Shown here: positions 10,793-48,618 of the stretch, piece by piece | Layout: each line of letters starts with the position of its first letter | How positions within the stretch are numbered: the stretch's first letter is position 1 | From: an uncultured Gammaproteobacteria bacterium | Lineage (GTDB): Bacteria > Pseudomonadota > Gammaproteobacteria > Arenicellales > CAJQKF01 | Assembly: GCA_964350265.1 (NCBI GenBank) | Contig: CAYGJZ010000001.1 | Location: 33,944 to 97,943 of the forward strand | Direction: 5' to 3' | DNA: 64,000 bases | Translations under genes and position numbers: made by a program | Notes under the pieces: generated by a model | The model's input: the letters and a program-made list of their open reading frames with translations, nothing else | The model's database searches: none | What the model was told of the DNA's origin: nothing

Positions 10793-11640
10793 GCGGCCTG
10801 CGCGAAGGGCCGCCGCGCAGCATCCTGTTCGTGCCCGGCAGCCGGATCGAGCTGGCGGCGAAGGCGGCGGCGCTGGCGGACGCGGTGTGCATCGACCTGG
10901 AAGACGCTGTCGAGCCCGCTGCCCGTCCCGCCGCCCGCCGCGCCCTTGCCGAAGGCGTGGCCGCGGTGCGCCAGGCCGGCACCGCGGTGCTGGTGCGGAT
11001 CAACGCCGAGGCCGCCGAGCATGGCCTGGACATCGACGCCCTGCCCGGCCCGGTGGATGCCCTGGTGGTGGCCAAGGCGGCCGGCGCCGGACACCTGCAC
11101 GGCATCGCGCAACGGCTCGCCGCCGGCGGGCTCGGCGCCGTACCGCTGCTGCCCATGATCGAGGACCTGGCCGGCCTCGACGCCTTTGCCGGCCTCGGCG
11201 AGGCCGACGGGCAGTCGCTGGCGGGCATCACCATCGGCTGCGAGGATCTTGCCGCCGACCTCGGCTGCGCGGTGCAGGGGGTGGCCATGGAGCATGCCTT
11301 CTACCGGCTGGCCGAGTGTGCCCGTCGCCTGCGGGTGCCGCTGCTCGGCTACCCCGGCAGCATCGCCGGCTTCGCCGATCTCGACGGCTACCGCGCGCTG
11401 GCCGAGGCGGGTGCGGCGATGGGTGCGGTGGGTGGCTTCTGCATCCATCCGCGGCAGGTGGCGGTGCTCAACGCGGTGTTCAGCCCGGACCCGGCGGCAT
11501 TGGCGAAGGCGCGCCAGGTGGTGGCCGCCTACCAGGCCGCCGGCGGCGGCGCGGTGGCGCTGGACGGGCGCATGGTGGATCGCCCGGTGGTGTTGCGGGC
11601 GCAGGCCCTGCTGGCCCGCGCCGAACGCTTCAGCGCCTGA
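10789..11640 (+). CDS. HpcH/HpaI aldolase / citrate lyase beta (CitE)-like acyl-CoA lyase
   Basis: GTG start overlaps the transferase stop (GTGA). SILFVPGSR...CIDLEDAV...PMIEDLAG...GCEDLAADLG matches the CitE/malyl-CoA lyase family pattern. Confidence 0.8.
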   Translation: MSGLREGPPRSILFVPGSRIELAAKAAALADAVCIDLEDAVEPAARPAARRALAEGVAAVRQAGTAVLVRINAEAAEHGLDIDALPGPVDALVVAKAAGAGHLHGIAQRLAAGGLGAVPLLPMIEDLAGLDAFAGLGEADGQSLAGITIGCEDLAADLGCAVQGVAMEHAFYRLAECARRLRVPLLGYPGSIAGFADLDGYRALAEAGAAMGAVGGFCIHPRQVAVLNAVFSPDPAALAKARQVVAAYQAAGGGAVALDGRMVDRPVVLRAQALLARAERFSA

Positions 11641-32889: not shown

Positions 32890-33043
32890 CGGCCGGATTA
32901 TACGCACCGGTCCGCCCCTGCATAGATGGAATTTACTCAAGATATCAAGTACAAGGCGGTATCGGGGCGCGGTCGGAATCCCCCCCTGCCACTGCCGCTT
33001 CGAGGCCGCGGGGCGGGTCCTGGTGGCGCCGGCGATCACGACT

Positions 33044-33129
33044 GGCTATCGAATTGCCGTGAACTTAGCCACGGGCTATCGTCCGATAAGACAGATCACT
33101 TTGACAGTGTTCTTTCACTCTCTCTACTC
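33044..33129 (+). promoter_or_regulatory. Conserved MSA-island promoter/operator element, copy 1 (upstream of msmA)
   Basis: GGCTATCGAA-N20-GGCTATCGTCCGATAAGACAGATCACTTTGACA (-35-like 33101-33106), then N17, then CTACTC (33124-33129). Near-identical to copy 3. Confidence 0.65.
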
Positions 33130-33253
33130 TTGCCGGACGTAATACCCGCGGCCCGATTCCGGAAATTCCGGCGTTGCCGCCGTGAATCCAGGCGGGACAC
33201 CCAGCCGTCGAGCGACCAGCGGTCGCCGACCATCACAGCGAGGAGCCAATACC

Positions 33254-34540
33254 ATGCCAACCAGAAATGCAGAAACCTGGAAGCAGGCGCCGAAGGGCCT
33301 GCGTCAGGGCGAATGGATCGATTCGCGCATCTACTCCGACCGGGAGATCTTCGAAGAAGAGCTGAACAAGGTCTGGAAGAAGTGCTGGATCGCGGTCTGC
33401 CACGAATCCGAGCTGTCCGAGCCCTACGATTTCCGCACCATGACCATCGCTCGCGAGCCGATCATCGTGGTGCGTGGCCCGGACAACAAGATCCGCGCCT
33501 TCCTCAACGTCTGTCCGCACCGCGGCAACATGATCGAGATGCGTCCTTCCGGCAACTTCAAGGAAGGCACCCCGTCGGGCAACCCCAAGCACATGACCTG
33601 CATGTTCCACGCCTGGCAGTTCGACATGAAGGGCAACTGTTCCTACATCTCGCGCGAGAAGGAAGGTTACCAGGAGCGCCTGACCCGCAAGGACGTCGGC
33701 CTGCGCAAGCTGAAGAGCGAAGTGTACTTCGGCGGTTTCGTCTGGGTCTGCCTGGACGACGAGATGGACCAGACCGTGGCCGAGTGGGGCGGCGGTGCCT
33801 TCGATTGCCTGCAAAAGGCGGTGGACGAAGAGCCGTTGGAGGTCTTCCACTACCACAAGGCCATCATTCCGTGCAATTACAAGCTGTGGCATGACACCAA
33901 CTCGGAGTTCTACCACGACTACCTGCACTACCATAACCGCATCACCGGCTTCAACGACGAGTACTTCGCGCGCAAGAACTCCGCCTACGACAACGGTCAC
34001 GTGGTAGTCGGCTCGTTCAAGGTGCGCTACGACCAGTACGAGGGCTTCCATTCCCGTGCCGATGCCTCCTTCCCGCACATGGAGGAGAATGCCTGGTACA
34101 TGATCGACATGTTCCCGGGCATCAACTTCAACCTGCGCGGTTCGGCGCTGCGTTGCGACCTGATGACGCCGCTGTCGCCCAACGAGGTGATGATCGAGTT
34201 CCGCGGTCTCGGCCTGAAGAGCGACACCCCGGAGCTGCGCAAGGCACGCATCGAGCACCACAACTCGATCTGGGGTCCGTTCGGGCGCAACCTGCACGAG
34301 GACCTGATCGCGGTCAGCGGCCAGGGCGGCACCATGGCGGAGAACGCCGAGCCGCGCCGCATCCTGCACGGCCGCCACGAGAACCACACCATCCACGACG
34401 AAGTCGGCATGCGTCACTTCTACGACGTCTGGGGCCAGATGATGGATCGCCTGCCGAGCGACCCGACCCAGCCCTACGCGCCGCCCCCCGCGGACCTCGA
34501 GCTCGAGGAGCCTGCGAAACAGGCTGCCAGCGCAGGCTGA
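33254..34540 (+). CDS. msmA: Methanesulfonate monooxygenase hydroxylase large subunit (Rieske/mononuclear Fe)
   Basis: 428 aa from MPTRNAETWK (GAGGAG RBS). Rieske motif CPH-(26 residues)-CMFH, the unusual X26 spacing described for MsmA. Followed by beta subunit, Rieske ferredoxin and reductase genes. Confidence 0.85.
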   Translation: MPTRNAETWKQAPKGLRQGEWIDSRIYSDREIFEEELNKVWKKCWIAVCHESELSEPYDFRTMTIAREPIIVVRGPDNKIRAFLNVCPHRGNMIEMRPSGNFKEGTPSGNPKHMTCMFHAWQFDMKGNCSYISREKEGYQERLTRKDVGLRKLKSEVYFGGFVWVCLDDEMDQTVAEWGGGAFDCLQKAVDEEPLEVFHYHKAIIPCNYKLWHDTNSEFYHDYLHYHNRITGFNDEYFARKNSAYDNGHVVVGSFKVRYDQYEGFHSRADASFPHMEENAWYMIDMFPGINFNLRGSALRCDLMTPLSPNEVMIEFRGLGLKSDTPELRKARIEHHNSIWGPFGRNLHEDLIAVSGQGGTMAENAEPRRILHGRHENHTIHDEVGMRHFYDVWGQMMDRLPSDPTQPYAPPPADLELEEPAKQAASAG

Positions 34541-34620
34541 GTGGCCCTTCCCGGCGGCGACCCGAGCGGTCGCCGCCGACCGATGCTGTTGATCGAAAAC
34601 CTGTCGAGTTCAAGAACACC

Positions 34621-35121
34621 ATGAGTAACGAAAAACGCACGGCCGCCGTGGAGGCCGTCAAGGACACCATCTACCGCGCCTGCCTGCACCTGGACGACGA
34701 AAAGTGGAGCGACTGGCTGGACCAGTGTGACCAGGACTTCACCTATGCCATCTGCGCCTACAGCCCGGAAATCCGCACCGACATGACCTACCTGTCCGGC
34801 GACCGCGAGGAAATGGTGTCGTTGACGGAGATGCTGCCCAAGCACAACACCGACCAGTCGCCGCTGAGCCGTCATGCCACCGTCTACGCGGTGGACGTCA
34901 GCGAGGACGGCACCGAGGCCAGCGCGGTGACCACCGTGGCCATCTACCAGACCCGTCTGAACGGCAACAGCTCCCACGTCGATGCCGGTTCCACCCACCT
35001 GTTCGTCAGTGCCAAGTACTACGACAAGTTGCGACTGGTGGACGGCAAGGCCAAGTTCGTCGAGCGGGTGACGCGGCTGGACACCCGCCGCCTCGACCGC
35101 GGCTCGCACTGGCCCTTGTAA
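34621..35121 (+). CDS. msmB: Methanesulfonate monooxygenase hydroxylase small (beta) subunit
   Basis: 166 aa from MSNEKRTAAVEAV (frame of ORF 34153..35121). NTF2-like ring-hydroxylating oxygenase beta-subunit pattern. Position follows msmA. Confidence 0.8.
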   Translation: MSNEKRTAAVEAVKDTIYRACLHLDDEKWSDWLDQCDQDFTYAICAYSPEIRTDMTYLSGDREEMVSLTEMLPKHNTDQSPLSRHATVYAVDVSEDGTEASAVTTVAIYQTRLNGNSSHVDAGSTHLFVSAKYYDKLRLVDGKAKFVERVTRLDTRRLDRGSHWPL

Positions 35122-35235
35122 CGACGACGCGGGGCCAAGCGCCCCGCCACGCCGTCGGGCGTCCGAGGAGGAGGCGCGTACCGGCCAACCGGGTCGGTGG
35201 CGCGCAGGAAAAAACGATAAGCGAGCCTACCCTAC

Positions 35236-35595
35236 ATGAGCTGGAAAAACGTCTGTAGCCTGAACGACCTGGAATCCAACAGCCTGCGCGAATTTGATGT
35301 CGACGGCATCAGCATCGTGCTGGCGCGCGTGGACGACCAGGTCCGTGCCATTCCCCCCGCCTGCCCGCACATGGAGGAGCCGCTGGCGCGCTCCGGCCTG
35401 TGTTCCGGCGGCATGCTCACCTGCACCAAGCACCTGTGGCAGTGGGACATCCTCACGGGCGAGGAGCGCGGCGACGCCGAGAAGCCGCTGTTGATGTACG
35501 AGACCAAGGTCGAGGACGACAACGTGCTGGTCTTCGTCGACGGCGAACTCGAGTACGAGTACGACGACGAGGATGACGAGGACGACGATGACTAG
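35236..35595 (+). CDS. msmC: Rieske-type [2Fe-2S] ferredoxin component
   Basis: 119-aa ORF. CPH-X17-CTKH Rieske motif. Poly-acidic C-terminal tail EYEYDDEDDEDDDD. Confidence 0.85.
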   Translation: MSWKNVCSLNDLESNSLREFDVDGISIVLARVDDQVRAIPPACPHMEEPLARSGLCSGGMLTCTKHLWQWDILTGEERGDAEKPLLMYETKVEDDNVLVFVDGELEYEYDDEDDEDDDD

Positions 35596-35646
35596 CGTCC
35601 ATCCCGGCGTCGGCGTTGGCCGTTGCCCGCGCGGAAGCGTGCGCGG

Positions 35647-36699
35647 ATGAGGATCGACGTCAAGGCCAAGAACGGCGAGTTTCACTTCGACTGCGAAGAA
35701 GGCGAACAGGTTCTCTATGCCGGCCTGCGCCAGGGCATCGAGCTGCCCTACGAGTGCGCCACCGGCACCTGCGGCACCTGCAAGGCCCGCGTCGGCGAAG
35801 ACCAGGGCGAACCCATCGTCAACGGCTGGGAGGAAGCCCCCGGTCGCGCCTACCTGAAGCCGAAGCGCGGCGAGTTCCTGATGTGCCAGGCCTCGGCGCG
35901 TGGCAGCTGCCGCATCGTCGTGCCGAGCAAGCTCAACGGCGCCGACGACCATGGTCGGCCCGGCTACCGCAACGGCGTCATCGGCGACCTGCGCACGCTC
36001 AACCCGGACGTGGTCGACTTCCGCGTGCGGCTCGATGCGCCGATGAGTTTCCGCGCCGGCCAGTTCGCCTGCCTGGAAACCCCGGGAGTGGAAGGCTTCC
36101 GCGCCTACTCGATGGTCAACTACGACACCAACGAGACCGACGAGCTGCACTTCGTGGTCAAGCGCAAGCCCGACGGCGCCTTCTCCAAGGCCCTGTTCGA
36201 CGGTCGCATCGACGGCGCTGCCACCCGGGTCTTCGGGCCCCTTGGCAAGGCGGTGTTCGACCCGGCGGAGAACCGCAACGTGCTGTGCATGGCCGGTGGT
36301 TCGGGCATCGCGGGGATGATGTCCATCGCCCGCCACGTCGACCACATCGACTACTGTGCCGATCACCACATGCGCATGTTCTTCGGCGTGCGCAGCGAGC
36401 GCGACACCTTCTACCTCGACGAGCTGGCGGAACTCGCCGAACGGCACGTCGACCGCATGTCGGTGTGGATCGTGCTTTCCGAAGAGGATCCGGGCGAGGC
36501 GCTGCGCGCCGCCTACCCGTCGCTGGGCTTCGACACCGGCTTCGTCCACGAGGTCATGGGTCGACGCATGCAGGGCCTGTACCAGGACTCGGTGGCCTTC
36601 GTGGCCGGGCCGCCGCCGATGGTCGACGGCGTGCTGCGGCTGCTGATCATCGACGGCCGCCTGCCGGCCTCGGACATTCGCTATGACAAGTTCTCGTAA
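35647..36699 (+). CDS. msmD: Ferredoxin-NAD(P)H reductase component (plant-type 2Fe-2S + FNR-like)
   Basis: 350 aa from MRIDVKAKNG (ORF track offers TTG at 35623). CATGTCGTCKARV cluster motif, FAD/NAD domains RAYSMVN and MAGGSGIAGMMS. Confidence 0.85.
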   Translation: MRIDVKAKNGEFHFDCEEGEQVLYAGLRQGIELPYECATGTCGTCKARVGEDQGEPIVNGWEEAPGRAYLKPKRGEFLMCQASARGSCRIVVPSKLNGADDHGRPGYRNGVIGDLRTLNPDVVDFRVRLDAPMSFRAGQFACLETPGVEGFRAYSMVNYDTNETDELHFVVKRKPDGAFSKALFDGRIDGAATRVFGPLGKAVFDPAENRNVLCMAGGSGIAGMMSIARHVDHIDYCADHHMRMFFGVRSERDTFYLDELAELAERHVDRMSVWIVLSEEDPGEALRAAYPSLGFDTGFVHEVMGRRMQGLYQDSVAFVAGPPPMVDGVLRLLIIDGRLPASDIRYDKFS

Positions 36700-36801
36700 C
36701 GCGATGGCGGCGGCTTGCACAATGAAGCAGCCTGCCGGAACATCGAACCACAACCGACGACATGACACCGGCGCTCGCGCGAAGGTATTGGAGGAACGCC
36801 G

Positions 36802-37236
36802 ATGACGGAAACCCCGAACAAGCACGAAGTCCTGGTCGATGCCGAGCTCTTTGCCGGCGTCGACCCGGCCACCATCGACCGCATTGCCGAAGTCTCCGGG
36901 TTCCGGCGCTTCGAGGAAGGCGACGTCGTCTACCAGATGGGCGATGACGCCGACCACGCCTTCGTGCTGGTCCAGGGCCGCGTGCGCTTCAGTCTCGGCG
37001 TGGGCAACCGGCCGGGCAGCGGGCATTCCATCATCACCCGCAACATGACCTACGGCTGGGCTGCGCTGATCGACGAGCGGCCGCGACGCGTGGCTACCGC
37101 CTCGTGTCTCGAGCCGACCGTGCTGCTGGCCATCGACGGTCGCAAGCTGTTGACCATTCTCGAGGACGACACCGCCTCCGGCTTCCTGGTCATGCGGCGC
37201 ATCGCCTCGATGATTGCCAGGAACTTCCTGGAGTAG
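36802..37236 (+). CDS. Stand-alone cNMP-binding-like domain protein (degenerate phosphate-binding cassette)
   Basis: 144-aa ORF with GGAGG RBS. CAP/cNMP-fold pattern GDVVYQMGD..D..FVLVQGRV...YGWAALIDERPRRVATASCL. No HTH or other output domain. Confidence 0.75.
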   Translation: MTETPNKHEVLVDAELFAGVDPATIDRIAEVSGFRRFEEGDVVYQMGDDADHAFVLVQGRVRFSLGVGNRPGSGHSIITRNMTYGWAALIDERPRRVATASCLEPTVLLAIDGRKLLTILEDDTASGFLVMRRIASMIARNFLE

Positions 37237-37260
37237 TATTCACCCGCGCACCAGCGTCAT

Positions 37261-37291
37261 GCCGCGACCCCCGGGGTCGCGGCGCATTTTT
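37261..37291 (+). terminator. Rho-independent terminator after the msmABCD-cNMP unit
   Basis: GCCGCGACCC-CCG-GGGTCGCGGC, then GCA, then TTTTT. Confidence 0.7.
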
Positions 37292-37369
37292 CCCAGGGTC
37301 GCCGCGCGCGGCCCTTGTTGACCGTTCACGAACACCGTACAACGACACCACGCAGAGGAGCGAAACCAC

Positions 37370-39043
37370 ATGGCCAAGACCGATCTTGAGATTGCCCGCG
37401 AGGCGAAGATGCAGCCGATCAACGAGATCGCGTCGAAGATCGGCATTCCCGACGATGCGCTGGCGCCCTTCGGTCGTACCAAGGCCAAGGTGTCCTTCGA
37501 CTTCATCAACACGCTGAAGGACCGCAAGGACGGCAAGCTGATCCTGGTCACGGCGATGTCGCCGACCCCGGCCGGCGAAGGCAAGACCACCACCACGGTG
37601 GGACTCGGCGATGCCCTGAACCGCATCGGCAAGAAGACCATGATGTGCCTGCGCGAGCCGAGCCTCGGCCCGTGCTTCGGCATGAAGGGCGGCGCCGCCG
37701 GCGGCGGCTATGCCCAGGTAGTGCCGATGGAAGACATCAACCTGCACTTCACCGGCGACTTCCACGCCATCACCTCGGCCCACAACCTGCTGTCGGCGAT
37801 GATCGACAACCATGTCTACTGGGGCAACGAGCTCGGCTTCGACCTGCGTCGCATCTCCTGGCGCCGCGTGGTCGACATCAACGACCGCTCGCTGCGTTCC
37901 ATCGCCAGCGGCCTGGGCGGCGTCAGCAACGGCTTCGTGCGCGAGACCGGCTACGACATCACCGTCGCCTCGGAGATCATGGCCATCTTCTGCCTGGCGC
38001 GCGACCTGGATGATCTCAGCGAGCGGCTCGGCAACATCATCGTCGGCTACACCCGGGACCGCGAAGCCATCTATGCCCGCCAGGTGAAAGCCCCGGGCGC
38101 GATGACCGCGTTGCTGCGCGACGCGCTGTCGCCGAACCTGGTGCAGACGCTGGAGAACAACCCGGTGTTCATCCACGGCGGTCCCTTCGCCAACATCGCC
38201 CATGGCTGCAACTCGGTGATCGCCACCACCACCGCGCTCAAGCTGGCCGACTACGTGGTCACCGAGGCCGGCTTCGGCGCCGACCTCGGGGCCGAGAAGT
38301 TCTTCGACATCAAGTGCCGCAAGGCCGGCCTGAATCCCGCTGCCGCGGTCATCGTGGCCACCGTGCGTGCACTGAAGATGCACGGCGGCGTGGCCCGCGA
38401 TGCGCTGGGTGCCGAGGACATTCCGGCATTGAAGGCGGGACTGGCCAACCTTGGCCGTCACATCCGCAACGTCGGTCACTACGGCGTTCCGGTGGTGGTG
38501 GGCATCAACCGCTTCTCCGGCGATACCGACGGCGAGATCGAGGCGGTCAAGGCCTACTGCCGCGAGCTCGGCGTGGAAGCCATTTCCTGCACCCACTGGG
38601 GCGACGGTGGCGCCGGCGCCGAGGCACTGGCCGAGGCGGTGGCCAAGCTGGCCGACAGCGGCAGCGCGCAGTTCCGCACCCTGTACGACGACGACGTGCC
38701 GCTGTGGCAGAAGGCGAAGACCATCGCGCAGAAGATCTACGGCGCCGAGGACATCATCGCCGATGCCCGCGTGCGTGCGCAGTTCACCGCCTACGAGGAA
38801 GCCGGTTTCGGTTCGCTACCGATCTGCATGGCCAAGACGCAATACAGTTTCTCCACCGATCCGAAGCTGCTCGGCGCGCCGAGCGATCACGCGGTGGCCA
38901 TTCGCGAAGTGCGCCTGTCCGCCGGTGCCGGCTTCCTGGTGTGCATCTGCGGCGACATCATGACCATGCCTGGTTTGCCGCGAGTGCCCGCCGCAGACAA
39001 GATTTTCGTCGACGATAACGGCAATATCGAGGGATTGTTCTAG
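37370..39043 (+). CDS. fhs: Formate--tetrahydrofolate ligase
   Basis: 557-aa [19 protein letters not shown]-loop and full-length collinearity with the FTHFS family as recalled ([22 protein letters not shown]). Confidence 0.95.
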
Positions 39044-39103
39044 CCGTTCCACAGTGTGAAAACGGGCCCCGGCAGGGGACGATGGCGGGCGATGTAACAC
39101 CTT

Positions 39104-39175
39104 ACAAGTGATAGCCCGCCCCTATCGTTTCATTCGTTCAAATGACTTTACAAATCGAAGTCAGTCCGCTGAGAT
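39104..39175 (+). promoter_or_regulatory. Conserved MSA-island element, copy 4 (degenerate; far upstream of msmE)
   Basis: GATAGCCCGCCCCTATCGTTTCATTCGTTCAAATGACTTTACA (-35-like TTTACA 39147-39152), then N17, then TGAGAT. Shares the CTATCGT...A.AT.ACTTT.AC frame with copies 1-3, but weaker. Confidence 0.4.
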
Positions 39176-39679
39176 AGATGCAGGTCGGAGGCCGGTAACG
39201 ATGACGTTACCGGTTCGCCGAAACACCGTGAATCACGGTGTTTTCGCAGCGACAAGCAGAACCGGCCCTGGGGTGACACCCTGGCGAGAACAAGTCGCGA
39301 ACACCCTGGCCCGGTCCGCCGCGCCAGGCGGGGTTACGCGACCCGCCGCGACACCCGGCAGCATGTGCGACCCGGCTGCCAGTTGCCAACGGCAACTCGA
39401 CACGGCGCGAATGACAGGAGGAAACATGACGCGTAACCCCAGCTACGCGCAACGACGTGCGCAGCCGGCCACCCCGGCCCGAACAGGACAGAGCCATGCT
39501 CATGCCCTGTCTCGCGCCTGCGCCCTCTCGGTTTCCCGTTCGATTTACCAAGCTCATACTCCGGCCATGACAGCTCACCTGCCTTGCCCGGTGCCCTGAG
39601 TGAGGCCGCCCGGTGCCCATGCGGGCAACCGGTGATGCCTTAGCTACCCAAGAAGTTTGACCACGATAAGGAGGAAGCC

Positions 39680-40816
39680 ATGTTTCAACATCGAACGATT
39701 TCCCGGACCCTGAGCACCGCCGCTGCGGCGATGTTCGCGGTTGGTGTACCGGGAACCGCCCTCGCGGCGGACAAGGACTACGGCAATCCGGGGGAGCCGG
39801 TTGACCTGGTCATTGGTTACCAGCCGTACTACACCCAGTCCTGGTCCGGCGTGGTCATGCGCGGACAGGAACTGTGGAAGAAATACCTTCCGGAAGGTTC
39901 CAGCGTGGAATTCGCCATTGGCCTGCAAGGCGCCATCGTGGTGAACAACATGCTCGCCGGCAAGAACGACATCGGCTACATGGGCGACATGCCGGCCATC
40001 GTTGCCACCACCAAGGACGAGGTCGCCGACATTCGCATCGTCGCCACCCTCGGCACGGGCTGGGACATGTGCAACGTGTTCCTGGTGCGCAACGACGCAC
40101 CGGAATTCGCCGATGCACAGGAGGCCATGAAGTGGCTGGACGGCAAGATCGTCGCGGTGCCGCAGGGTAGCTGTACCGACCGCTTCGCCCGCGCCGTGTT
40201 CGAGAAGCTGTCCATCGAGCCGGAGGCCTACCTCAACCAGAACATCGAGGTCATCACCAGTGGCTTCCGCGTCGGCAAGCTGGACGCGGCGGTCATGTGG
40301 GAACCGACCACCTCGCGCCTGGTGGAAGAGGGCCTGGCCCGACGTGTTGCTTCCGGCGCCTCCGCCGATGAGAACGACGGTGGCTTCCTGGCCATGCGTG
40401 GCGACCTCATCAAGCAGCGCCCGGACGTGGTCAAGGGCTGGCTCGAGGCCGAGCTGGACGCGCAGCTTTTCCTCTCCGATCCGGCCAACTACATGGCGGT
40501 GGTGAAGATGGCGCAGGACCAGACCACCGGCTTCTCCGAGAAGATCCTGTGGAGCTCGCTGGCCGGTTCCTTCCCGGAATCCCAGGGTGGCGTGGAAGTG
40601 CGTGACTACAAGGAATACGCGATTACCCCGCGCGCCCAGGAGCTGCTGACCCGTGCGACCAAGTTCCTGCACTCGATCAAGAGCATCAAGTCGGACACCC
40701 TGCGTCCGGAAGCCGTGATGACCGAGTTCACCGAGGAGATCCTCAAGGAACGTGGCCTGACCGCGCCGATCGGCGAGATCAAGGCTCAGCCCGAGTCCGC
40801 CTACACCGGTAGCTGA
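39680..40816 (+). CDS. msmE: Sulfonate-type (NMT1/TauA-SsuA-like) ABC substrate-binding protein
   Basis: 378-aa ORF. AAGGAGG RBS, signal peptide ...GTALAA. First gene of a binding-permease-ATPase-permease set, the same order as msmEFGH. Confidence 0.75.
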   Translation: MFQHRTISRTLSTAAAAMFAVGVPGTALAADKDYGNPGEPVDLVIGYQPYYTQSWSGVVMRGQELWKKYLPEGSSVEFAIGLQGAIVVNNMLAGKNDIGYMGDMPAIVATTKDEVADIRIVATLGTGWDMCNVFLVRNDAPEFADAQEAMKWLDGKIVAVPQGSCTDRFARAVFEKLSIEPEAYLNQNIEVITSGFRVGKLDAAVMWEPTTSRLVEEGLARRVASGASADENDGGFLAMRGDLIKQRPDVVKGWLEAELDAQLFLSDPANYMAVVKMAQDQTTGFSEKILWSSLAGSFPESQGGVEVRDYKEYAITPRAQELLTRATKFLHSIKSIKSDTLRPEAVMTEFTEEILKERGLTAPIGEIKAQPESAYTGS

Positions 40817-40861
40817 TCGGCAGGTCATCGACGATCCGTCGTCGACGACCCGTCCGTGACT

Positions 40862-40897
40862 GCCTGGTTCATGCGCCAGCGCGCGCATGAACCAGGC
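40862..40897 (+). other. Intercistronic 15-bp perfect hairpin between msmE and msmF
   Basis: GCCTGGTTCATGCGC-CAGCGC-GCGCATGAACCAGGC, with no following T run. Confidence 0.6.
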
Positions 40898-41021
40898 AAC
40901 CGCTGCCCTGTAACCACGTCCGCGGCACCAGGGTCATCAACCACCGCGCCCTGCCGGGTCCGGTGACCAGGCCAGGACCCTGCCGCAAGTTCGATTCCAT
41001 GTCTGACATCCCAAGGAGTTT

Positions 41022-42398
41022 GTGCGCCATGCCGAGGAGTTTCGCGTGAACGAGGCGCTGGTATCGCTGCTCAAGGAAAGCATGCCCTTCCGGGTGGTTT
41101 CCGACGAGTTGCTCAATCGTATCGCCGCCATATCCCGGCGAACGACCTACGACCCCGGCGAGGTGATCTACCACGCCGACGAGCCATCCGACGATATCTA
41201 CATCGTTGTCGAGGGCCGCATCGAACATTCCCTGCCCAGCAACGTGGTCAGCCACAACCCGATCCGCGTGGTCGAGCGTGGCGACGTGTTCGGCTGGGCA
41301 TCCCTGCTGAAGAACCGGCCGGGGCGATTGGCGAAGACGACTTCGCTGGTCAAGTCGGAAGTACTGCGTATCGACGCGCAGCAACTCATGGCGGTGCTGG
41401 ACTCGGATCCGGCGACCGCAGATACCGTCATGAGCCGGTTCGCTACCATGATCAACAAGGATTTCGCCGTGTCCGGAGAAAACGCCCAACTCACCACGCC
41501 CAGTCAAACCGCGACGGGCGCCGACTCGAGAAGCAGTTCCGCTGGCGGCGCGCCCATCACGGGCACGGCGCTGACCATGTTCCGCTTCGCCCAGTGGCTG
41601 CGCAGCCCGCGTCCATACCTGATGCTGATCGGGTTCGCGCTGCTGTTCGGCTTCTGGTTCCTGACCACCGAGGTGTGGAAACTGCCGCGCTTCCGCGAGA
41701 TGCCCGGCCTCACCGAGGTCTGGCGAGAGTGGTTGTCGGAGAACCCCATCTACGGCCTGTCCGTCCACGTGCCCGAGTACTACACCCATATCTGGGTGAG
41801 CATCCGGCGGGTCATGATCGCCTTCGGCCTGGCCACCGTGCTCGGCGTGCCGCTGGGACTGTTCCTCGGCTGGTCGCAGAAGTTCAAGGAATACGTGTTC
41901 CCGGTGTTCGAGACGCTGCGTCCGATCCCGGTGCTGGCCTGGGTGCCGCTGGCCATCCTGATGTTCGCCGGGCTGGAAACCCCGGTCATCTTCCTGACCT
42001 TCCTGGCCTCGTTCTATGCCACTGCGCTGAACACCATGCTCGGCGTGCAGTCCATCGACGAGTCCTACAGTCGCGCCGCCTACTGTCTCGGCGCCAGCGA
42101 CGCACAGGTCTTCCGCCACATCGTCATTCCCGGCGCCATGCCGTTCATCTTCACCGGCCTGCAGATCTCCATCGGCGTGGCCTGGTTCTCGCTGGTGGCG
42201 GCGGAGATGGTCTCGGGACAGTACGGTCTTGGCTACGTCATCAACACTTCGTACACGATGGTTCGTTACCCGACCATCATCATCGGCATGATCACGCTCG
42301 GCGTCATCGGCTACGCCACCAGTGCCATGGTGCGCATGCTCGGCGACCACCTGATGCAGTGGCGTGTACGTGAACTCGCACTGGGAGAGCAGAATTGA
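41022..42398 (+). CDS. msmF: NitT/TauT-family ABC permease with N-terminal cNMP-binding-like domain
   Basis: 458-aa ORF (GTG 41022; the alternative GTG 41046 has better GAGGAG spacing). Residues 1 to about 150 are paralogous to the 36802 protein (GEVIYHADE..D.IYIVVEGRI...FGWASLLKNRPGRLAKTTSL). Residues 200-458 are a 6-TM BPD permease. Confidence 0.8.
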   Translation: MRHAEEFRVNEALVSLLKESMPFRVVSDELLNRIAAISRRTTYDPGEVIYHADEPSDDIYIVVEGRIEHSLPSNVVSHNPIRVVERGDVFGWASLLKNRPGRLAKTTSLVKSEVLRIDAQQLMAVLDSDPATADTVMSRFATMINKDFAVSGENAQLTTPSQTATGADSRSSSAGGAPITGTALTMFRFAQWLRSPRPYLMLIGFALLFGFWFLTTEVWKLPRFREMPGLTEVWREWLSENPIYGLSVHVPEYYTHIWVSIRRVMIAFGLATVLGVPLGLFLGWSQKFKEYVFPVFETLRPIPVLAWVPLAILMFAGLETPVIFLTFLASFYATALNTMLGVQSIDESYSRAAYCLGASDAQVFRHIVIPGAMPFIFTGLQISIGVAWFSLVAAEMVSGQYGLGYVINTSYTMVRYPTIIIGMITLGVIGYATSAMVRMLGDHLMQWRVRELALGEQN

Positions 42399-43270
42399 TT
42401 TCCGCGGTAGAAAACATGAAGGGCAACGGCGGTTCCGCACCGTTGTCCGCCAACGGCGGAGCCATCCGCATCGACGACGTGGTCAAGGTCTATGACCCGG
42501 ACGGCGCAGCGGTGATGGCGGTGGATCATTGCAGCCTGGACATCAAGGCCGGCGAGATCTGCATGATCGTTGGCCCGTCCGGCTGCGGCAAGACCACCTT
42601 GCTGAACGCCATTGCCGGCTTCCACGACATCACTTCCGGCAGCATCCACATGGATGGCGAACTGCTGTGCGGCCCCGGCAAGCCGATGGCCCAGCCCGGT
42701 TCCGACCGCATCGTGGTGTTCCAGAACGGCGCGCTGTTTCCCTGGCGCACCAACCTGGAGAACGTCATCTTCGGCCCGGTGATGCAGGGCAAGATGAGCA
42801 AGAAGGAGGCCATCGAGAAGGCCCGTGGCATGATGGCCGACGCCGGTCTCAACGACGTCGAGTACAACTACCCGGGCGAGATCTCCTCCGGCGTGCGTCG
42901 CCGCGTGGAAATCGTCCGCGCGTTGATGAACGATCCCAAGGTGCTGCTGTTCGACGAGCCCTACCGCGCCCTCGACTCGCTGACCAAGTCGGTCATGCAC
43001 GAGGCGTTGCTGGAGATCTACTACCGCAACCCGGTGACCATCTTCTTCATCACCCACGACCTGGAAGAGGCGTTGTTCGTCGGCCACAAGGTGGCCATCA
43101 TGACCACCCGCCCGTGCAAGCCGAAGAAGATTCTCGACGTCGACATTCCGCATCCGCGGGACTACGGCGTGTTGACCAGCAAGCGATTCCGCGAGCTGAT
43201 GGAAGAAACCGTTGATGCCGTGCACGAGGAGGCCCTGAAGGCCTTCGATCGCGGCGAGAAGGAGGGCTGA
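42395..43270 (+). CDS. msmG: ABC ATPase with non-canonical signature motif
   Basis: 291-aa ORF (TTG overlapping the msmF stop; alternative ATG 42416). Walker A GPSGCGKTT, signature position reads ISSGVRRR, Walker B LLFDEP, H-loop ITHD. Confidence 0.85.
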   Translation: MISAVENMKGNGGSAPLSANGGAIRIDDVVKVYDPDGAAVMAVDHCSLDIKAGEICMIVGPSGCGKTTLLNAIAGFHDITSGSIHMDGELLCGPGKPMAQPGSDRIVVFQNGALFPWRTNLENVIFGPVMQGKMSKKEAIEKARGMMADAGLNDVEYNYPGEISSGVRRRVEIVRALMNDPKVLLFDEPYRALDSLTKSVMHEALLEIYYRNPVTIFFITHDLEEALFVGHKVAIMTTRPCKPKKILDVDIPHPRDYGVLTSKRFRELMEETVDAVHEEALKAFDRGEKEG

Positions 43271-43273
43271 TCG

Positions 43274-44107
43274 ATGGCCACAGCCACCAAGCGCGCTGGT
43301 CGCAAACTGCCGCTGCGCTCGATGCGTCGCGGCGTCATTTCCATCATCGTCTTCCTGGTCCTGTGGGAGATCGGTTCAAGCTTCGGCGAGTGGTTCGGCA
43401 TCCAGCTGCCGTGGATCGGGCGCATTCCCCCGCCCACCGACGTGCTGGTTTCCTGGAAGGGCCTGCTCACCGACCAGGGCTACTGGTACAGCTGGTACCA
43501 GACCTACCTGCGGGTGTTCGCCGGCTTCCTCGCCGCCATGGTGGTGGGGATACCCTTCGGACTGGCCATGGCGGTGAGCCGCACGGCCTACGGCATCCTG
43601 TTCCCGCCCTTCGAGGTGCTGCGTCCGATCCCGCCGCTGGCCTGGGTGCCGGCCGCGATCATCTTCTGGCCCACCCAGGAGCTGTCGATCGCCTTCGTGA
43701 CCTTCCTTGGCGCCTTCTACACCATCGTCATCAACGTGCTCGGCGGAGCCCGCTCCATCGACGTCCGCTACTTCCAGGCGGCGCAGTCCATGGGTGCCAA
43801 TTCCTGGAACGTGTTCCGGCGCATCATCCTGCCCGGCACGCTGCCCTCGATCTTCGTCGGCGCGGCGGTGGGCATGGGCATCACCTGGGAAGTGGTGGTG
43901 GCCGCGGAGATGATCTCCGGTGGCGGCGGCGCCATCCAGGGCGGTTCCGGTGGTGGCCTGGGCTTCTTCATCTGGAACTCCTACGTTGGCGGCTCGGATA
44001 CGCAGATCGTGGTCGGCATGATCAGTATCGGCATCGCCGGCTACATCTCCAGCGAGCTGATCCGTTGGCTCGGCACGTTTGCCACGCCGTGGCTGCGTCA
44101 ACGATGA
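43274..44107 (+). CDS. msmH: NitT/TauT-family ABC permease (second TMD)
   Basis: 277-aa ORF. The BPD-transporter permease core is paralogous to the MsmF C-terminal half (LRPIPPLAWVPAAIIFWP...). Confidence 0.85.
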   Translation: MATATKRAGRKLPLRSMRRGVISIIVFLVLWEIGSSFGEWFGIQLPWIGRIPPPTDVLVSWKGLLTDQGYWYSWYQTYLRVFAGFLAAMVVGIPFGLAMAVSRTAYGILFPPFEVLRPIPPLAWVPAAIIFWPTQELSIAFVTFLGAFYTIVINVLGGARSIDVRYFQAAQSMGANSWNVFRRIILPGTLPSIFVGAAVGMGITWEVVVAAEMISGGGGAIQGGSGGGLGFFIWNSYVGGSDTQIVVGMISIGIAGYISSELIRWLGTFATPWLRQR

Positions 44108-44151
44108 GCCCCACCAAGGCCGCTTAACGAACTTCAAGAGATAGCATAGTC

Positions 44152-45078
44152 ATGGCGATTCAATCCTCCGCCCGGCAGGCAGCAGCCTCCGGCGGCAAAC
44201 TCGGCTCCGACATCGCCCCGGGCGAGATCAAGGTCGAGAACGTTTCCAAGTCCTATGGCACCGGTCCGGTGGCGCGCGAAGTCGTGCGCGACTGTTCCTT
44301 CGTCATCGAGCGCGGCAAGCTCAACGTGATGATCGGCCCCTCCGGCTGCGGCAAGAGCACGCTGATCCGCCTGATCGCCGGCTTCCAGCGGCCCAACAAG
44401 GGCAGCGTGACGCTGGACGGCAAGCCGATCACCGAGCCCTCCCGCGACCGGCTGGTGGTGTTCCAGGAGACCGCGCTGTTCCCCTGGATGACCACCTGGG
44501 AGAACATCGTCTACGGGCCCAAGGCACGTGGCACGTTCAACCGCGAGACCCGCGAGCGGGCAGAGTTCCTGCTCGACAAGGTGGGCCTGGTGCAGTTCCG
44601 CGAGAAGTATCCCACCCAGTTGTCCGGTGGCATGCAGCGTCGCGCCGAACTGGCCCGGGCGATGATCAACAATCCCCAGGTGATGATCCTCGACGAGCCG
44701 TTCCGCGGCCTCGACTCGATGACCAAGGAACTGATGTGGGAGTACTACGCCTCGCTGTTCGAGGAGTCCGGCCGCACCAACTTCTTCGTCACCACCGACA
44801 TCGACGAAGCGGTGTTCCTGGCCGACCGCATGATCATCATGACCAACATCCCCACCCGCGTGCGCGCGGTGCTCGACATCGACCTGCCGCGACCGCGCAA
44901 GCTGTCCGACATGATCGAGGACGACCGCGCCAACGAGGTGAAGATGAAGGCACTGGCGATCCTCCACGAGGAGGCGATGAAGTCGTTCAGCGGCGGCAGC
45001 GCCGCGGCTTCGGACTTCGTCGAGGCCTACTCCCGCCGGGTCGGCAAGCGCAACCGGTCCGACGGCGACGACGGCTGA
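44152..45078 (+). CDS. Second ABC ATPase (canonical signature, H-loop His replaced)
   Basis: 308-aa ORF. Walker A GPSGCGKST, signature LSGGMQRR, Walker B ILDEPF, but the H-loop position reads VTTD instead of THD. Confidence 0.85.
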   Translation: MAIQSSARQAAASGGKLGSDIAPGEIKVENVSKSYGTGPVAREVVRDCSFVIERGKLNVMIGPSGCGKSTLIRLIAGFQRPNKGSVTLDGKPITEPSRDRLVVFQETALFPWMTTWENIVYGPKARGTFNRETRERAEFLLDKVGLVQFREKYPTQLSGGMQRRAELARAMINNPQVMILDEPFRGLDSMTKELMWEYYASLFEESGRTNFFVTTDIDEAVFLADRMIIMTNIPTRVRAVLDIDLPRPRKLSDMIEDDRANEVKMKALAILHEEAMKSFSGGSAAASDFVEAYSRRVGKRNRSDGDDG

Positions 45079-45281
45079 TGCCCGACTGGCTGGTATCGCG
45101 CGCCACCGTCATCACCCTGGCGGTGATCGGCGGGGTGATCTCGCTGGTGGTGTCGCAGCTGCATGGTCGTGGCCGCATCGACGACGCCCAGGCGAAGAAG
45201 TTCAACCGCGTCGGCTACGGCTTCATGTGGGCCAGCATCGCGCTGTTCATCTACGCCGGCTTCCGCGCCGGCTACCAGTAG
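45078..45281 (+). CDS. Small two-TM membrane protein
   Basis: 67 aa, MPDWLVSRATVITLAVIGGVISLVV...FMWASIALFIYAGF. The ATG overlaps the ATPase stop (TGATG), implying translational coupling to the transporter operon. Confidence 0.55.
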   Translation: MPDWLVSRATVITLAVIGGVISLVVSQLHGRGRIDDAQAKKFNRVGYGFMWASIALFIYAGFRAGYQ

Positions 45282-45320
45282 GCTTCCCCGCGCCGCGCCC
45301 GCCGCGGCCAGTCGCAGGAC

Positions 45321-45352
45321 AAAAAAACGGGCCCGGTTTGTAGCCGGGCCCG
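45321..45352 (-). terminator. Rho-independent terminator of the sulfite dehydrogenase operon
   Basis: CGGGCCCGG-N7-CCGGGCCCG. Read on the minus strand it is followed by TTTTTTT (the A run at 45321-45327 on the plus strand). Confidence 0.75.
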
Positions 45353-45418
45353 GCGTTCATCGCTCAAGGAGGAGTATCCGTTACCCCGTGGTCTGCGCCC
45401 CGTGGGTCATCGCCTGCT

Positions 45419-46042
45419 TCAGCCTGCGTGGTCGCCGTCGGCAACGGTGCCGATGGGCTTGCAGTCCGACATGCAGCGTTCTGCGCTGGCGTCCGGGCGG
45501 TCGTCGTTGATGAAGGCATCCTTGTTCGGCATCTCGATGGCCGGCATGGTCTCCGCGTTCATGGTGAAGTCCTCGGCCACCAACCCGTTCAGGTGGTAGA
45601 TGTAGGCGGACACCGCGTAGACCTCGTCGTTGGTCAGCGAGTATGGCCGGTCCATCGGCATGGCACGACGCACGTAGTCGAAGATGATCGGCGCATAGGG
45701 ATACATGCTGCCGGGCGTCAGCTTGCGCGGACGCTCGGTCATGCTGCCGATGCCACCGACCATGCTGCCGTACACAGGCCCGCCGCCGGCATCGGCGCCG
45801 TGGCAGGCCAGGCACTTGGCCTCGTACACCGCCTTGCCCTCGGCCACCGTGCCCTGTCCTTCGGGCAGGCCGACACCGGTGGGTGCCTGGATCTCGATGT
45901 CCCACAGGGCGAGGTCGCTCTCGGCGATGTCCGAGCCGAAGGCAGCGCCTTCCGGACGTTCACCGAAGTCGGCCTGTACCGCGCCGACGAGGGCGAAGGA
46001 CAGCGTTGCCGCGATGGCGGCATGCAGTTTACGCGATGGCAT
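45419..46042 (-). CDS. Monohaem cytochrome c subunit of sulfite dehydrogenase (SorB/SoxD-like)
   Basis: 207-aa ORF with signal peptide and a single CLACH haem motif. Start overlaps the molybdoprotein gene by 14 nt. Confidence 0.75.
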   Translation of the reverse strand: MPSRKLHAAIAATLSFALVGAVQADFGERPEGAAFGSDIAESDLALWDIEIQAPTGVGLPEGQGTVAEGKAVYEAKCLACHGADAGGGPVYGSMVGGIGSMTERPRKLTPGSMYPYAPIIFDYVRRAMPMDRPYSLTNDEVYAVSAYIYHLNGLVAEDFTMNAETMPAIEMPNKDAFINDDRPDASAERCMSDCKPIGTVADGDHAG

Positions 46043-47387
46043 TTTTCACCTCCCCACTTTCGGAAACGGACCAGGGGAAGACACCGTTGTGGTGCTGCAC
46101 GAAGCCGACGATCTCGCGCTTGCGCGCCAGGTCTTCCACCGTGGGCTGCACGTAGCCGGTGTCGTCCATGGCGCGGCTGGCGATCTTCGCCGGGCTGCCG
46201 TCCCACTGCCAGTTGTAGCGGAAGCGGGTCAGGCACTTGTCCATCACCGGTCCTTCCACCGTGGCCTCGCGCCAGGTCTTGCCGCCGTCGAAGGTCACGT
46301 CCACCGCCTTGATCTTGCCAAGCCCCGACCAGGCAAAGCCCTGCACCTCGTAGAGGCCGGGGCCGGCCATGTTCATGCCGCCGGAGGGGTTGGTGATCAC
46401 CGACTTGCATTCCATCTCCATGCTGAACTGGCGCCACTTGCCGTCCGGCATCGGGTCGGTGTAGCGGGCGGTCTCGCCGCGCACGTGGGCCGGCTGGTCC
46501 ACCACCTTGATGCGGCGCAGCCACTTCACGTTGGTGTTGCCTTCCCAGCCGGGGATGATGGCGCGCAGCGGGTAGCCCTGCTCGGCACGCAGCATCTCGC
46601 CGTTCTGGCCATAGGCCAGCAGCACGTCGTCCATGATCTTCTCGATGGGAATCGAGCGCAGGTGGCCGGAGCCGTCACCGCCCTCGAGCATCACCCACTT
46701 GCCTTCCGCCTTCACACCGGCCTCGTCCAGCAGCCAGGCCAGCGGAATGCCGGTCCACTGTCCGCAGGACAACAGGCCGTGGCTCTGCTGCACGGTGGTC
46801 GCCTTCGGCTCGCGCCAGTCGGTGAGCGTGTTGCCCGAGCACTCCAGGAAGTGGAAGCGTGATACCGACGGGTAGCGCATCAGGTCGTTCATGGTGAACA
46901 CCAGCGGCCGCTCCACCAGTCCGTGGATGACCAGCCTGTGCTGCTCCGGGTCGATCTGTGCAACGCCGTTGTGGTGACGTTCGAAGAACAGCCCGTTCGG
47001 CGTCACGATGCCGATCTGGTGCTGCAGCGGCGTCATGCTCCAGTCGGAGAAGTTCTGCTTGTTGACGAAGACATCCGTACGGCGCCGCTTGACGTGATCC
47101 TCGTACTGGATCGGCATGCCGTAATCCGTTTCGGGAATCGGCCGTCCCATGGTCTTGTTGCTCTCCGGCACCGCCAGTGGCTCGGCGCGCGCGGCGGATA
47201 TGCCCGCGCCTGAGGCCATGGCAACACCTGCCATGGAAAGACCGGATTGCAGGAACCGGCGACGTTCGCCGGCGGAAGGTGCCCTGGAGGGCTGCGTGCT
47301 CAGCGTTCGGTCGTTCGGCGCATCGGCCGAACCCGAACCGCCCGCCTCCCCGCTGCTGCGGGTACGGACTTTCTTGGTAGTCATCAA
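46029..47387 (-). CDS. SoxC/SorA-family molybdopterin sulfite dehydrogenase
   Basis: 452-aa ORF. Tat signal ERRRFLQSG. Sulfite-oxidase-fold motifs HFLECSGN, GWEGNTNVKWL and a C-terminal dimerisation domain. Confidence 0.85.
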   Translation of the reverse strand: MMTTKKVRTRSSGEAGGSGSADAPNDRTLSTQPSRAPSAGERRRFLQSGLSMAGVAMASGAGISAARAEPLAVPESNKTMGRPIPETDYGMPIQYEDHVKRRRTDVFVNKQNFSDWSMTPLQHQIGIVTPNGLFFERHHNGVAQIDPEQHRLVIHGLVERPLVFTMNDLMRYPSVSRFHFLECSGNTLTDWREPKATTVQQSHGLLSCGQWTGIPLAWLLDEAGVKAEGKWVMLEGGDGSGHLRSIPIEKIMDDVLLAYGQNGEMLRAEQGYPLRAIIPGWEGNTNVKWLRRIKVVDQPAHVRGETARYTDPMPDGKWRQFSMEMECKSVITNPSGGMNMAGPGLYEVQGFAWSGLGKIKAVDVTFDGGKTWREATVEGPVMDKCLTRFRYNWQWDGSPAKIASRAMDDTGYVQPTVEDLARKREIVGFVQHHNGVFPWSVSESGEVKNAIA

Positions 47388-47495
47388 TTGCTCCTCCGAC
47401 AGTGATCTATCGGTTTATCGTGATTGGCTATGATGCCGTTGTCTGTTGCTTGCCGTTTCTCCTCGCGGTTTCAGGTGGGAATAGTGCTCATGCAA

Positions 47496-47577
47496 GAATA
47501 GAAACGCGCTTGGCAAACTGCAAAGTGATCTCGCTTATCGGATGATAGGCAGCGGCTTGCTTGACAGCGATGGAGCC
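47496..47577 (-). promoter_or_regulatory. Conserved MSA-island promoter/operator element, copy 2 (upstream of the sulfite dehydrogenase operon)
   Basis: The minus strand reads GGCTCCATCG...GCCTATCATCCGATAAGCGAGATCACTTTGCAG-N-CTATTC. The -10-like box is about 110 nt before the ATG at 47387. Confidence 0.6.
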
Positions 47578-47655
47578 CTCGCGCCATGGTGCACCGTTGC
47601 CAACCCACATGGTCCCGTCCTTGTCCGCCGCCCGTTCCCGTCTTCTGCCTGGTGT

Positions 47656-48618
47656 ATGCCCCATCGGCCACGTGGTGGCCGTGATGGTCGACGGTTGAGC
47701 GCGCCCGTATCGCCGCGGCGACGGCTGGCCGCGGCCAGCGCGGTGGTGCTCGGCGCGGTGGCCACCGCCGCCAACCCGGTGTTCGTGCGGATCAGTGACG
47801 TCGGCCTGGTGGCCTCGGCCTTTCACCGCATGTTCTGGGCCATCCCGGTGCTGGCGCTGTGGGCCTGGCTGGCGCGGCGCCGGGAATCCGCGCCACGCGG
47901 TCTCGGCACACGCGACGCGGTGCTGCTGCTGGCCTGCGGTGCCTTCTTCGCCGGCGACCTGGTGGCGCTGCATACCTCCATCTCGCTGACCTATGCCGCC
48001 AATGCCATCCTGTTCCTCAATGCCCAGCCCATCTACGTGGTGCTGGCCGGCTGGCTGCTGTTCGGCATCGTGGTCACCCGGCGCTTCGTGCTGGCGGCGG
48101 CGGTGGCCATGGCCGGGGCGGTATTGCTGGTGGGGCAGGGCGCACGGTTCGGTGGCGAACACCTGCTCGGCGACGGCCTCGGCGTGGTCGCCGGGCTGTG
48201 CTATGCCGGCTACATCCTCGCCGCCGCCTACCTGCGCAACGGTCGTGGCAGTGCGGTGATCAACCTGTGGACCTGCGTGGTCGGCGCGCCCATCCTGCTG
48301 GTGGCGGCGCTGGTTGCCGGCCAGGACATCCTGCCGCCCAGCGGGCGCGACCTGGCATTGATGATTGCGCTCGGCGTGGTCTCGCAGGCACTCGGCCAGG
48401 GCTTGATCGTGTGGGGCCTGGCCTACCTGCCGTCGAGTTTCTCCTCGGTGGCGTTGATGGTCGCCCCGGTGGCCGCCGCCGGTTTTGCCTGGCTGCTGCT
48501 GGACGAGGCCATGAGCGCACTGCAACTGCTGGCCATGGGCATCGTCCTGGCCGGTGTCTACGGTGCCTGGCGGGCCAGCTTCGCGGTCAAGCGCAGGCTC
48601 GAGGCGGCGGCGACGTGA
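47656..48618 (+). CDS. DMT-superfamily (EamA-like) transporter
   Basis: About 320 aa from MPHRPRGG within ORF 47542..48618 (start uncertain). Ten predicted TM segments and two EamA repeats. Confidence 0.7.
   Translation: MPHRPRGGRDGRRLSAPVSPRRRLAAASAVVLGAVATAANPVFVRISDVGLVASAFHRMFWAIPVLALWAWLARRRESAPRGLGTRDAVLLLACGAFFAGDLVALHTSISLTYAANAILFLNAQPIYVVLAGWLLFGIVVTRRFVLAAAVAMAGAVLLVGQGARFGGEHLLGDGLGVVAGLCYAGYILAAAYLRNGRGSAVINLWTCVVGAPILLVAALVAGQDILPPSGRDLALMIALGVVSQALGQGLIVWGLAYLPSSFSSVALMVAPVAAAGFAWLLLDEAMSALQLLAMGIVLAGVYGAWRASFAVKRRLEAAAT

Follow-up and report, generated by a model that had tools for sequence, protein, structure and literature searches.

In solved ATP-binding cassette (ABC) dimers one subunit contributes the Walker A, Walker B and H-loop around each ATP, and its partner contributes the signature. 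Among solved structures, the two ATPases described here come closest to those of the cyanobacterial nitrate and bicarbonate importers NrtABCD and CmpABCD (PDB 8wm7/8w9m and 9u9z/9ua1). These importers pair two unlike ATPase subunits with a binding protein of the NMT1 type, and their regulatory domain sits asymmetrically on the transporter. One permease is used twice in these importers and both ATP sites are standard, with two ATP-Mg bound symmetrically; in ATP-bound NrtBCD and CmpBCD each of the two ATP is sandwiched between one subunit's Walker A and its partner's signature (PMC10945777, PMC13287603). We analysed a 64,000-nucleotide stretch of contig CAYGJZ010000001.1 from an uncultured gammaproteobacterium (the window), whose + strand carries a methanesulfonate (MSA) utilisation cluster with the genes of an ABC importer inside it. 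This importer resembles Nrt and Cmp in its unlike ATPase subunits, its type of binding protein and its asymmetrically placed regulatory domain, but it has two different permeases, and one of its predicted ATP sites has a Ser in the signature and a Thr in the H-loop.

Pairs of one consensus and one degenerate ATP site are frequent in exporters (PMC3971661, PMC7756269). As in the heterodimeric exporters (TM287/288, TAP1/2, BmrCD and the ABCC family with CFTR), the ATPase domains of the window importer are non-identical and their deviations would meet in one composite site. In ABCC proteins, too, it is the first signature Gly that is replaced (LSVGQ, LSHGH), and the H-loop His is missing from TAP1 and CFTR. 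These exporters differ in having another membrane fold and a degenerate site that usually lacks the catalytic Glu, whereas the window pump appears to import with the help of a binding protein, has its four core subunits as separate proteins and retains the catalytic Glu. Among importers, RbsA and NupO were predicted from sequence in a Bacillus subtilis survey to have one competent ATP site, but both of their ATPase domains lie on one polypeptide, no Walker A Lys is present in the degenerate site (nor, for NupO, the Walker B acidic residues), and their membrane domains were grouped with type II importers (PMC11466899). The Escherichia coli DppABCDF and mycobacterial Opp/Dpp importers share with the window two permeases, two ATPase domains and one binding protein; however, DppD and DppF both carry functional motifs, either single E-to-Q mutant keeps ATPase activity, and there is no degenerate site (PMC12136057). 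A first-pass annotation of the window had called the asymmetry uncommon among type I NitT/TauT importers, which agrees with the two standard sites of Nrt, Cmp and Dpp but is tempered by RbsA, NupO and the fused nitrate-type ATPases described below, all of which share the design. Within the literature covered, our search found no description of such asymmetry for an MSA transporter or for type I importers whose ATPase subunits are separate.

The described MSA transporter of Filomicrobium, msmEFGH, has the same gene order as the window (binding protein, permease, ATPase, permease) beside msmABCD, and sulfite dehydrogenase, TauE and C1 genes lie close by. The published name ends at msmH, but the gene table of Filomicrobium strain Y lists an unnamed ATPase (10737-11624) directly downstream of msmH that matches the second ATPase of the window in position and size (PMC4433239). 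In the window, msmABCD and the transporter genes lie on the same strand, and the first permease carries an N-terminal cNMP-binding-like domain for which the Filomicrobium gene (approximately 295 codons) has no room.

The two ATPases of the window importer, MsmG (ATPase 1) and the product of an unnamed fifth gene (ATPase 2), both have the PF00005 core, namely a Walker A of the form GxxGxGK[ST], a standard Q-loop with its Gln, a Walker B hhhhDE and a D-loop Asp. Neither combines an LSGG[Q/M] signature with an H-loop His: MsmG has the His but an xSSGx signature, in which Ser165 stands at the place of the first Gly, and ATPase 2 has LSGGM but Thr215 where the His is expected (Table 1). HMMER alignments to CmpD (9u9z_D, the closest solved relative; E = 2e-47 for MsmG and 2e-58 for ATPase 2) run without gaps across the signature and the H-loop, placing 'eiSSGvrrr' of MsmG on 'qiSGGmkqr' and 'vtTDidea' of ATPase 2 on 'itHDidea', so that the motifs were not mis-assigned. 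All of the ATPase motifs quoted in the first-pass annotation, as well as the two permeases and a coupled open reading frame (ORF) of 67 amino acids (aa), are present where it had put them.

Positions conserved at 85% or more among 77 single-domain family representatives were compared column by column; the choice of these representatives required SGG and His, which fixes both columns in advance, and the only non-conservative departures at motif positions were Gly165Ser in MsmG and His215Thr in ATPase 2. Neither ATPase family varies in the Walker A, the Q-loop Gln, the Asp-Glu of Walker B or the D-loop Asp. The ISSGV signature had been read as degenerate against LSGGQ, and this stands only for the place of its first Gly: the family consensus is LSGGM[RQK]QR, in which Gln to Val, Leu or Met at the fifth position and Leu to Ile or Val at the first are normal, leaving the first Gly to Ser as the sole real change. 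The best NCBIfam matches of the ATPases were SaoA, TauB and ntrCD and the best PDB matches CmpD and NrtD. Every named NCBIfam equivalog (TauB, SsuB, NrtC/D, SaoA and their permeases) scored under its curated cut-off, with 188.1 for MsmG against 360 for SaoA and, against 291.8 for ntrCD, 179.9 for MsmG and 208.7 for ATPase 2; they represent a distinct, unnamed subfamily.

Species-representative genomes were scanned, which gave 557 confirmed relatives of MsmG, and 80 loci were kept. The layout binding protein, permease 1, MsmG, permease 2, ATPase 2 recurs throughout these loci, usually directly downstream of msmD and a stand-alone cNMP-like gene. In 76 of 76 loci with both ATPases, xSS[G/A]xRRR and ITHD in MsmG are paired with LSGGMQRR and xTTD in ATPase 2, far beyond what chance would give. 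The MsmG signature is SSG in 79 of the 80 loci and SSA in one; xTTD is found in all 74 loci whose ATPase 2 sequence spans the H-loop. Ser165 is encoded by TCN in 80/80 loci, with TCG, TCC, TCA and TCT all used, and Thr215 by ACN in 74/74, with ACC, ACG, ACT and ACA all used. Since synonymous codons have turned over while the amino acid stayed fixed, both residues are under purifying selection. Each is also two nucleotide changes away from the codons of the residue it replaces (GGN for Gly, CAY for His), and neither is therefore a recent slip.

Mean identity to the window proteins was 82.5% for MsmG, the most conserved component, 72.7% for ATPase 2, 69.7% for permease 2, 64.5% for the binding protein (found in 68 related loci) and 63.4% for permease 1. 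The lower conservation of ATPase 2 relative to MsmG, together with its absence from the published name msmEFGH (PMC4433239), might suggest a decaying or non-transport paralogue outside the importer. Its reading frame is intact, however, its other motifs are invariant wherever the gene is complete on its contig, its conservation exceeds that of the binding protein and of either permease, and without it MsmG would have no standard signature to pair with; we give this explanation hardly any credence.

We also scanned 1.84 billion cluster representatives with HMMER and tallied the motifs, without prior selection for them, among 150 representatives, in which 139 domains could be scored. SGG with His was found in 115 of the 139, SxG with His in 17 and SGG without His in six; no intact ATPase domain among the 150 representatives had both deviations on one polypeptide. 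The SSG signature is kept down to approximately 47-51% identity (P0244, P0246, P0367), and an H-loop Thr or Ser occurs in the ATPase 2-like representatives P0260, P0312, P0334 and P0336. In three lineages at approximately 50% identity the genes again run permease-ATPase-permease-ATPase and the deviations are divided in the same way, with Ser for Thr: ISSGMQRR and ITHD paired with LSGGMKRR and ITSE (L082), LSSGLQRR and ITHD with LSGGMQRR and VTSE (L085, which adjoins Rieske alpha and beta genes), and LSSGMRRR and ITHD with LSGGMQRR and VTSE (L086). The ATPase asymmetry is real, ancient and selected.

The two ATPases are only 37% identical; we considered and rejected the idea that they are recent tandem duplicates, and any duplication is old. 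They share several traits that are rare in the family, namely an Arg-Arg after the signature where the consensus is Gln-Arg (MsmG residues 169-170, ATPase 2 residues 163-164), a D-loop Arg in EP[YF]R[AG]LD where the family has EPF[GAS]ALD (191 and 185), a Lys for Arg after the D-loop (198 and 192) and a C-terminal 'HEEA[LM]K[AS]F' helix (approximately 277-284 and 272-279). These resemblances suggest that the two share an ancient origin or have co-adapted where they meet in the dimer.

With the head-to-tail geometry of ABC dimers, as seen in NrtBCD and CmpBCD, the MsmG signature would face the P-loop and H-loop position of ATPase 2, so that both deviations would fall in one composite site of non-identical domains and the other site would be fully consensus. 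This complementarity, as proposed in the first-pass annotation, recurs in all 76 loci and in the lineages at approximately 50% identity, and the geometric argument behind it is sound and has good support. AlphaFold2, run on MsmG and ATPase 2 fused into a single sequence, returned a mean pLDDT of 33.5 and a pTM of 0.20, values too low to be informative.

A different assembly, also named in the first-pass annotation as a possible refutation, would be two separate transporters, in which MsmF serves with an MsmG homodimer and MsmH with an ATPase 2 homodimer. The order permease-ATPase-permease-ATPase does resemble two modules, and a second binding-protein paralogue is present in a few loci (L013, L015, L018, L038 and L075). 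Each homodimer would, however, carry two defective sites, with two SSG signatures in the MsmG dimer and the H-loop His in neither site of the ATPase 2 dimer. The modules occur together in every locus with both ATPases and in the distant lineages, a lone binding-protein gene is the rule in most loci and is also what the window has, and neighbouring transporter genes overlap or are 4-44 nucleotides apart. Taken together, these points make two transporters very improbable.

Our preferred explanation is that 39680-45281 encodes one binding-protein-dependent type I importer for MSA, consisting of MsmE, a MsmF/MsmH permease heterodimer, a MsmG/ATPase 2 heterodimer and often a small two-helix membrane protein. 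Site A would be formed by the Walker A, Walker B and H-loop His221 of MsmG and the LSGGM of ATPase 2; it would be fully consensus and carry out the hydrolysis that drives transport. Site B would comprise the ATPase 2 Walker A and Walker B, with Thr215 in place of the H-loop His, and the xSSGx signature of MsmG. Keeping every ATP-binding residue and the catalytic Glu but not the His, site B most likely still binds ATP but has little or no hydrolytic activity, and could serve as a structural or regulatory nucleotide site. We regard this explanation as a whole as probable. Hundreds of genomes share the design in which both unusual residues fall in one ATP pocket, and this suggests that the importer runs on one fully standard ATP-splitting site.

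The claim that site B is inactive, made in the first-pass annotation, is overstated, and several observations weigh against slow or absent hydrolysis there. Site B keeps Walker A Lys68, Q-loop Gln105, Walker B Asp181-Glu182 and the D-loop Asp. The first signature Gly is also replaced in NitT/TauT ATPases with a normal H-loop His from loci where a single permease gene and a single ATPase gene precede unrelated genes (LSIGM in L090, 1813-2568, and L091; LSAGM in L094, 900-1712). These ATPases must be homodimers if functional and are presumably working, so the first Gly seems dispensable there and Gly165Ser alone cannot be read as a dead signature, a reading we rejected. In the L083/L084 lineage the MsmG-like ATPase keeps VSGGMGRR while its partner has VTSE, which means that the two changes are not strictly coupled. 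Asp181-Glu182 is present in 100% of loci, whereas loss of the catalytic Glu is given as the hallmark of degenerate sites (PMC7544095), and degenerate exporter sites typically lack it (PMC7756269). In addition, ABCC1 with Gln or Asn at the H-loop of nucleotide-binding site 2 (NBS2) kept transport, and mutation of NBS1 had little effect (PMC7756269).

Much of this would fit a heterodimeric importer in which both sites hydrolyse ATP and the H-loop Thr or Ser and the signature Ser are tolerated family variants that tune kinetics. The purifying selection on both residues, as opposed to drift, is what would be expected if site B still does something. Against it, the H-loop His is invariant in the 115 SGG/His representatives and is needed for hydrolysis in HlyB, MalK and HisP; the case for impaired hydrolysis would rest mainly on its loss. 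Moreover, the deviations always share a single composite site and are never spread over both sites or combined in one polypeptide, which is the known consensus/degenerate pattern. The clade has Thr or Ser where the His is expected and the fused nitrate-type family has Asn, suggesting selection for a residue other than His. Two hydrolysing sites therefore seem to us unlikely. The loss of the H-loop His in the ATPase 2 lineage is spread more widely than the Gly to Ser change in MsmG and may have preceded it.

The fused two-domain nitrate-type ATPases (P0250, P0253, P0254 and P0346) have LSGGM and VTND (His to Asn) in the N-terminal half and LS[N/A/I]GM and VTHD in the C-terminal half. One of them (P0250; L081 4737-6422) lies in an operon with a binding protein and a single permease. 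Against NCBIfam ntrCD such a fused ATPase scores 591.7 bits over two stretches, well above the cut-off that MsmG and ATPase 2 fail to reach, so the complementary split probably arose independently in the two groups. It is possible, if doubtful, that a clade of type I importers (at least 557 genomes matched) has been selected for a single hydrolytic site, with the second kept as a stable nucleotide-sensing or dimer-latching site that retains its catalytic Glu, that cNMP-like sensors were recruited to it in three separate ways, and that, with the same split arising independently in the fused nitrate-type ATPases, one-ATP importers are a recurrent, unrecognised NitT/TauT design.

Whether an ABC importer uses one or two ATP per cycle is still debated, mostly from engineered mutants. 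A naturally asymmetric and widely conserved four-subunit type I importer would allow a clean test of stoichiometry with one mutation per site, and one-ATP importers, if confirmed, would be a natural system for the number of ATP used per substrate. The analysis also corrects the parts list of MSA uptake, which is relevant to the marine and atmospheric sulfur cycle: beyond the genes covered by the name msmEFGH, the system has a second ATPase and, in many loci, a small membrane protein. The automatic label 'NitT/TauT ATP-binding protein' would conceal two functionally different subunits.

The cNMP-like domain accompanies these transporters in three forms: as the product of a free-standing gene, as the N-terminus of permease 1 (41022-41500 in the window) and as the N-terminus of a MsmG-like ATPase in L083/L084 (L083 160-1425, P0243, with an MTHFR gene after it). 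A homologue of the free-standing gene lies between msmD and the binding-protein gene in most related loci. The first-pass annotation had tied the domain to the asymmetry as a sign of allosteric control, a connection that proved loose. Approximately 10 loci have a permease 1 without the domain and keep both deviations (for example the Granulosicoccaceae loci L034, L036, L040, L056 and L066), and we rejected the two as one linked feature. By eye, both window copies read [FY]GW[AS][AS]L...R[LV]A in place of the GE...R[ST]A of canonical cAMP binders, and their ligand may accordingly be something other than a cyclic nucleotide.

Table 1. Positions in the window of the MSA cluster genes, the importer genes with their ATPase motifs, and the flanking hairpins
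Feature	Position	Strand	Details
MsmA, Rieske and ring-hydroxylase alpha subunit	33182-34540	+	
Beta subunit	within 34153-35121	+	
Rieske ferredoxin	35236-35595	+	
MsmD, reductase	35623-36699	+	
Stand-alone cNMP-binding-like protein	36802-37236	+	144 aa; PF00027, E = 2.8e-12
Terminator-like hairpin	37260-37284		Directly 3' of the stand-alone cNMP-like gene; 11-bp stem, 9 G-C pairs, T-run
Formate-tetrahydrofolate ligase	37370-39043	+	Between the stand-alone cNMP-like gene and the binding-protein gene
MsmE-like periplasmic substrate-binding protein (NMT1/SsuA-type)	39680-40816	+	378 aa; PF13379, E = 2.4e-10
Permease 1 (MsmF-like)	41022-42398	+	PF00027, E = 9.7e-15; PF00528, E = 1.2e-25
ATPase 1 (MsmG-like)	42395-43270	+	PF00005, E = 8.7e-30
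ATPase 1 Walker A	42572-42598	+	GPSGCGKTT
ATPase 1 signature	42881-42904	+	ISSGVRRR
ATPase 1 Walker B/D-loop	42941-42976	+	VLLFDEPYRALD
ATPase 1 H-loop	43049-43060	+	ITHD
Permease 2 (MsmH-like)	43274-44107	+	277 aa; PF00528, E = 3.7e-17
ATPase 2 (unnamed fifth gene)	44152-45078	+	PF00005, E = 3.3e-35
ATPase 2 Walker A	44335-44361	+	GPSGCGKST
ATPase 2 signature	44620-44643	+	LSGGMQRR
ATPase 2 Walker B/D-loop	44680-44715	+	VMILDEPFRGLD
ATPase 2 H-loop position	44788-44799	+	VTTD
Small ORF	45078-45281	+	67 aa, two hydrophobic helices; ATG overlaps the ATPase 2 stop codon
G+C-rich hairpin	45328-45352		A-run on one side, T-run on the other; divides the transporter operon from convergent genes

The combination of an NMT1/SsuA-like binding protein, BPD_transp_1 permeases and ATPases most similar to the TauB/NrtD/SsuB group is that of a NitT/TauT-type type I importer (PF13379, PF00528 twice). 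The order binding protein-permease-ATPase-permease, adjoining msmABCD, is that of msmEFGH, and the window MsmA has the Rieske motif CXH-X26-CXXH, whose long 26-residue spacer marks genuine MSA monooxygenases in the literature (PMC4433239). The substrate would be MSA, judging from this gene context. The MsmE-like protein scored 91.6 bits against TIGR01728 (SsuA_fam), under the cut-off, and its gene is the single binding-protein gene of the window operon. The second binding-protein paralogue of some loci (L013 10879-11886; L015 5502-6509; L018 7947-9020; L038 3791-4798; L075 4467-5474) is approximately 50% identical to the window MsmE-like protein and may broaden the substrate range of the same translocator.

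Permease 1 consists of the cNMP-binding-like domain (N-terminal, residues approximately 42-128) fused to a type I importer membrane domain. Database gene calls start it at GTG 41046 (450 aa) and not at the listed 41022. The listed MsmG ORF likewise begins at a TTG at 42395 and overlaps the stop codon of permease 1; in the database, proteins of identical sequence (P0001, 284 aa) begin at ATG 42416, the probable true start. Permease 2 lies between the two ATPase genes in all related loci. The 67-aa ORF is translationally coupled to ATPase 2, is called as a gene in identical database contigs and has no Pfam match. A similar ORF with two hydrophobic segments lies directly 3' of ATPase 2 in at least 46 of 72 loci and shares the pattern (W)LL.R..VI.LA..G....LN..(A/G)Y.FM..S..LFI..G; it is apparently absent from the Thiobacillus-type loci L069 and L074, and in L065 the scan criteria gave just an unrelated 45-aa ORF.

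The terminator-like hairpin that follows the stand-alone cNMP-like gene suggests that msmABCD with this gene and the formate-tetrahydrofolate ligase with the transporter genes may be transcribed as separate units. No strong terminator-like site was found inside 39680-45281, a promoter scan of 36600-45500 gave no match, and an Rfam search of 33000-48000 found no RNA family. The convergent genes beyond the hairpin at the other end encode a cytochrome c and a SoxC-type sulfite dehydrogenase, followed by a LysR regulator and a TauE sulfite exporter. In most related loci the formate-tetrahydrofolate ligase gene has another place or falls beyond the stretch retrieved, and in L079 (10709-12373) it separates ATPase 2 from the small ORF; the position of this C1 gene within the cluster thus shifts among loci.

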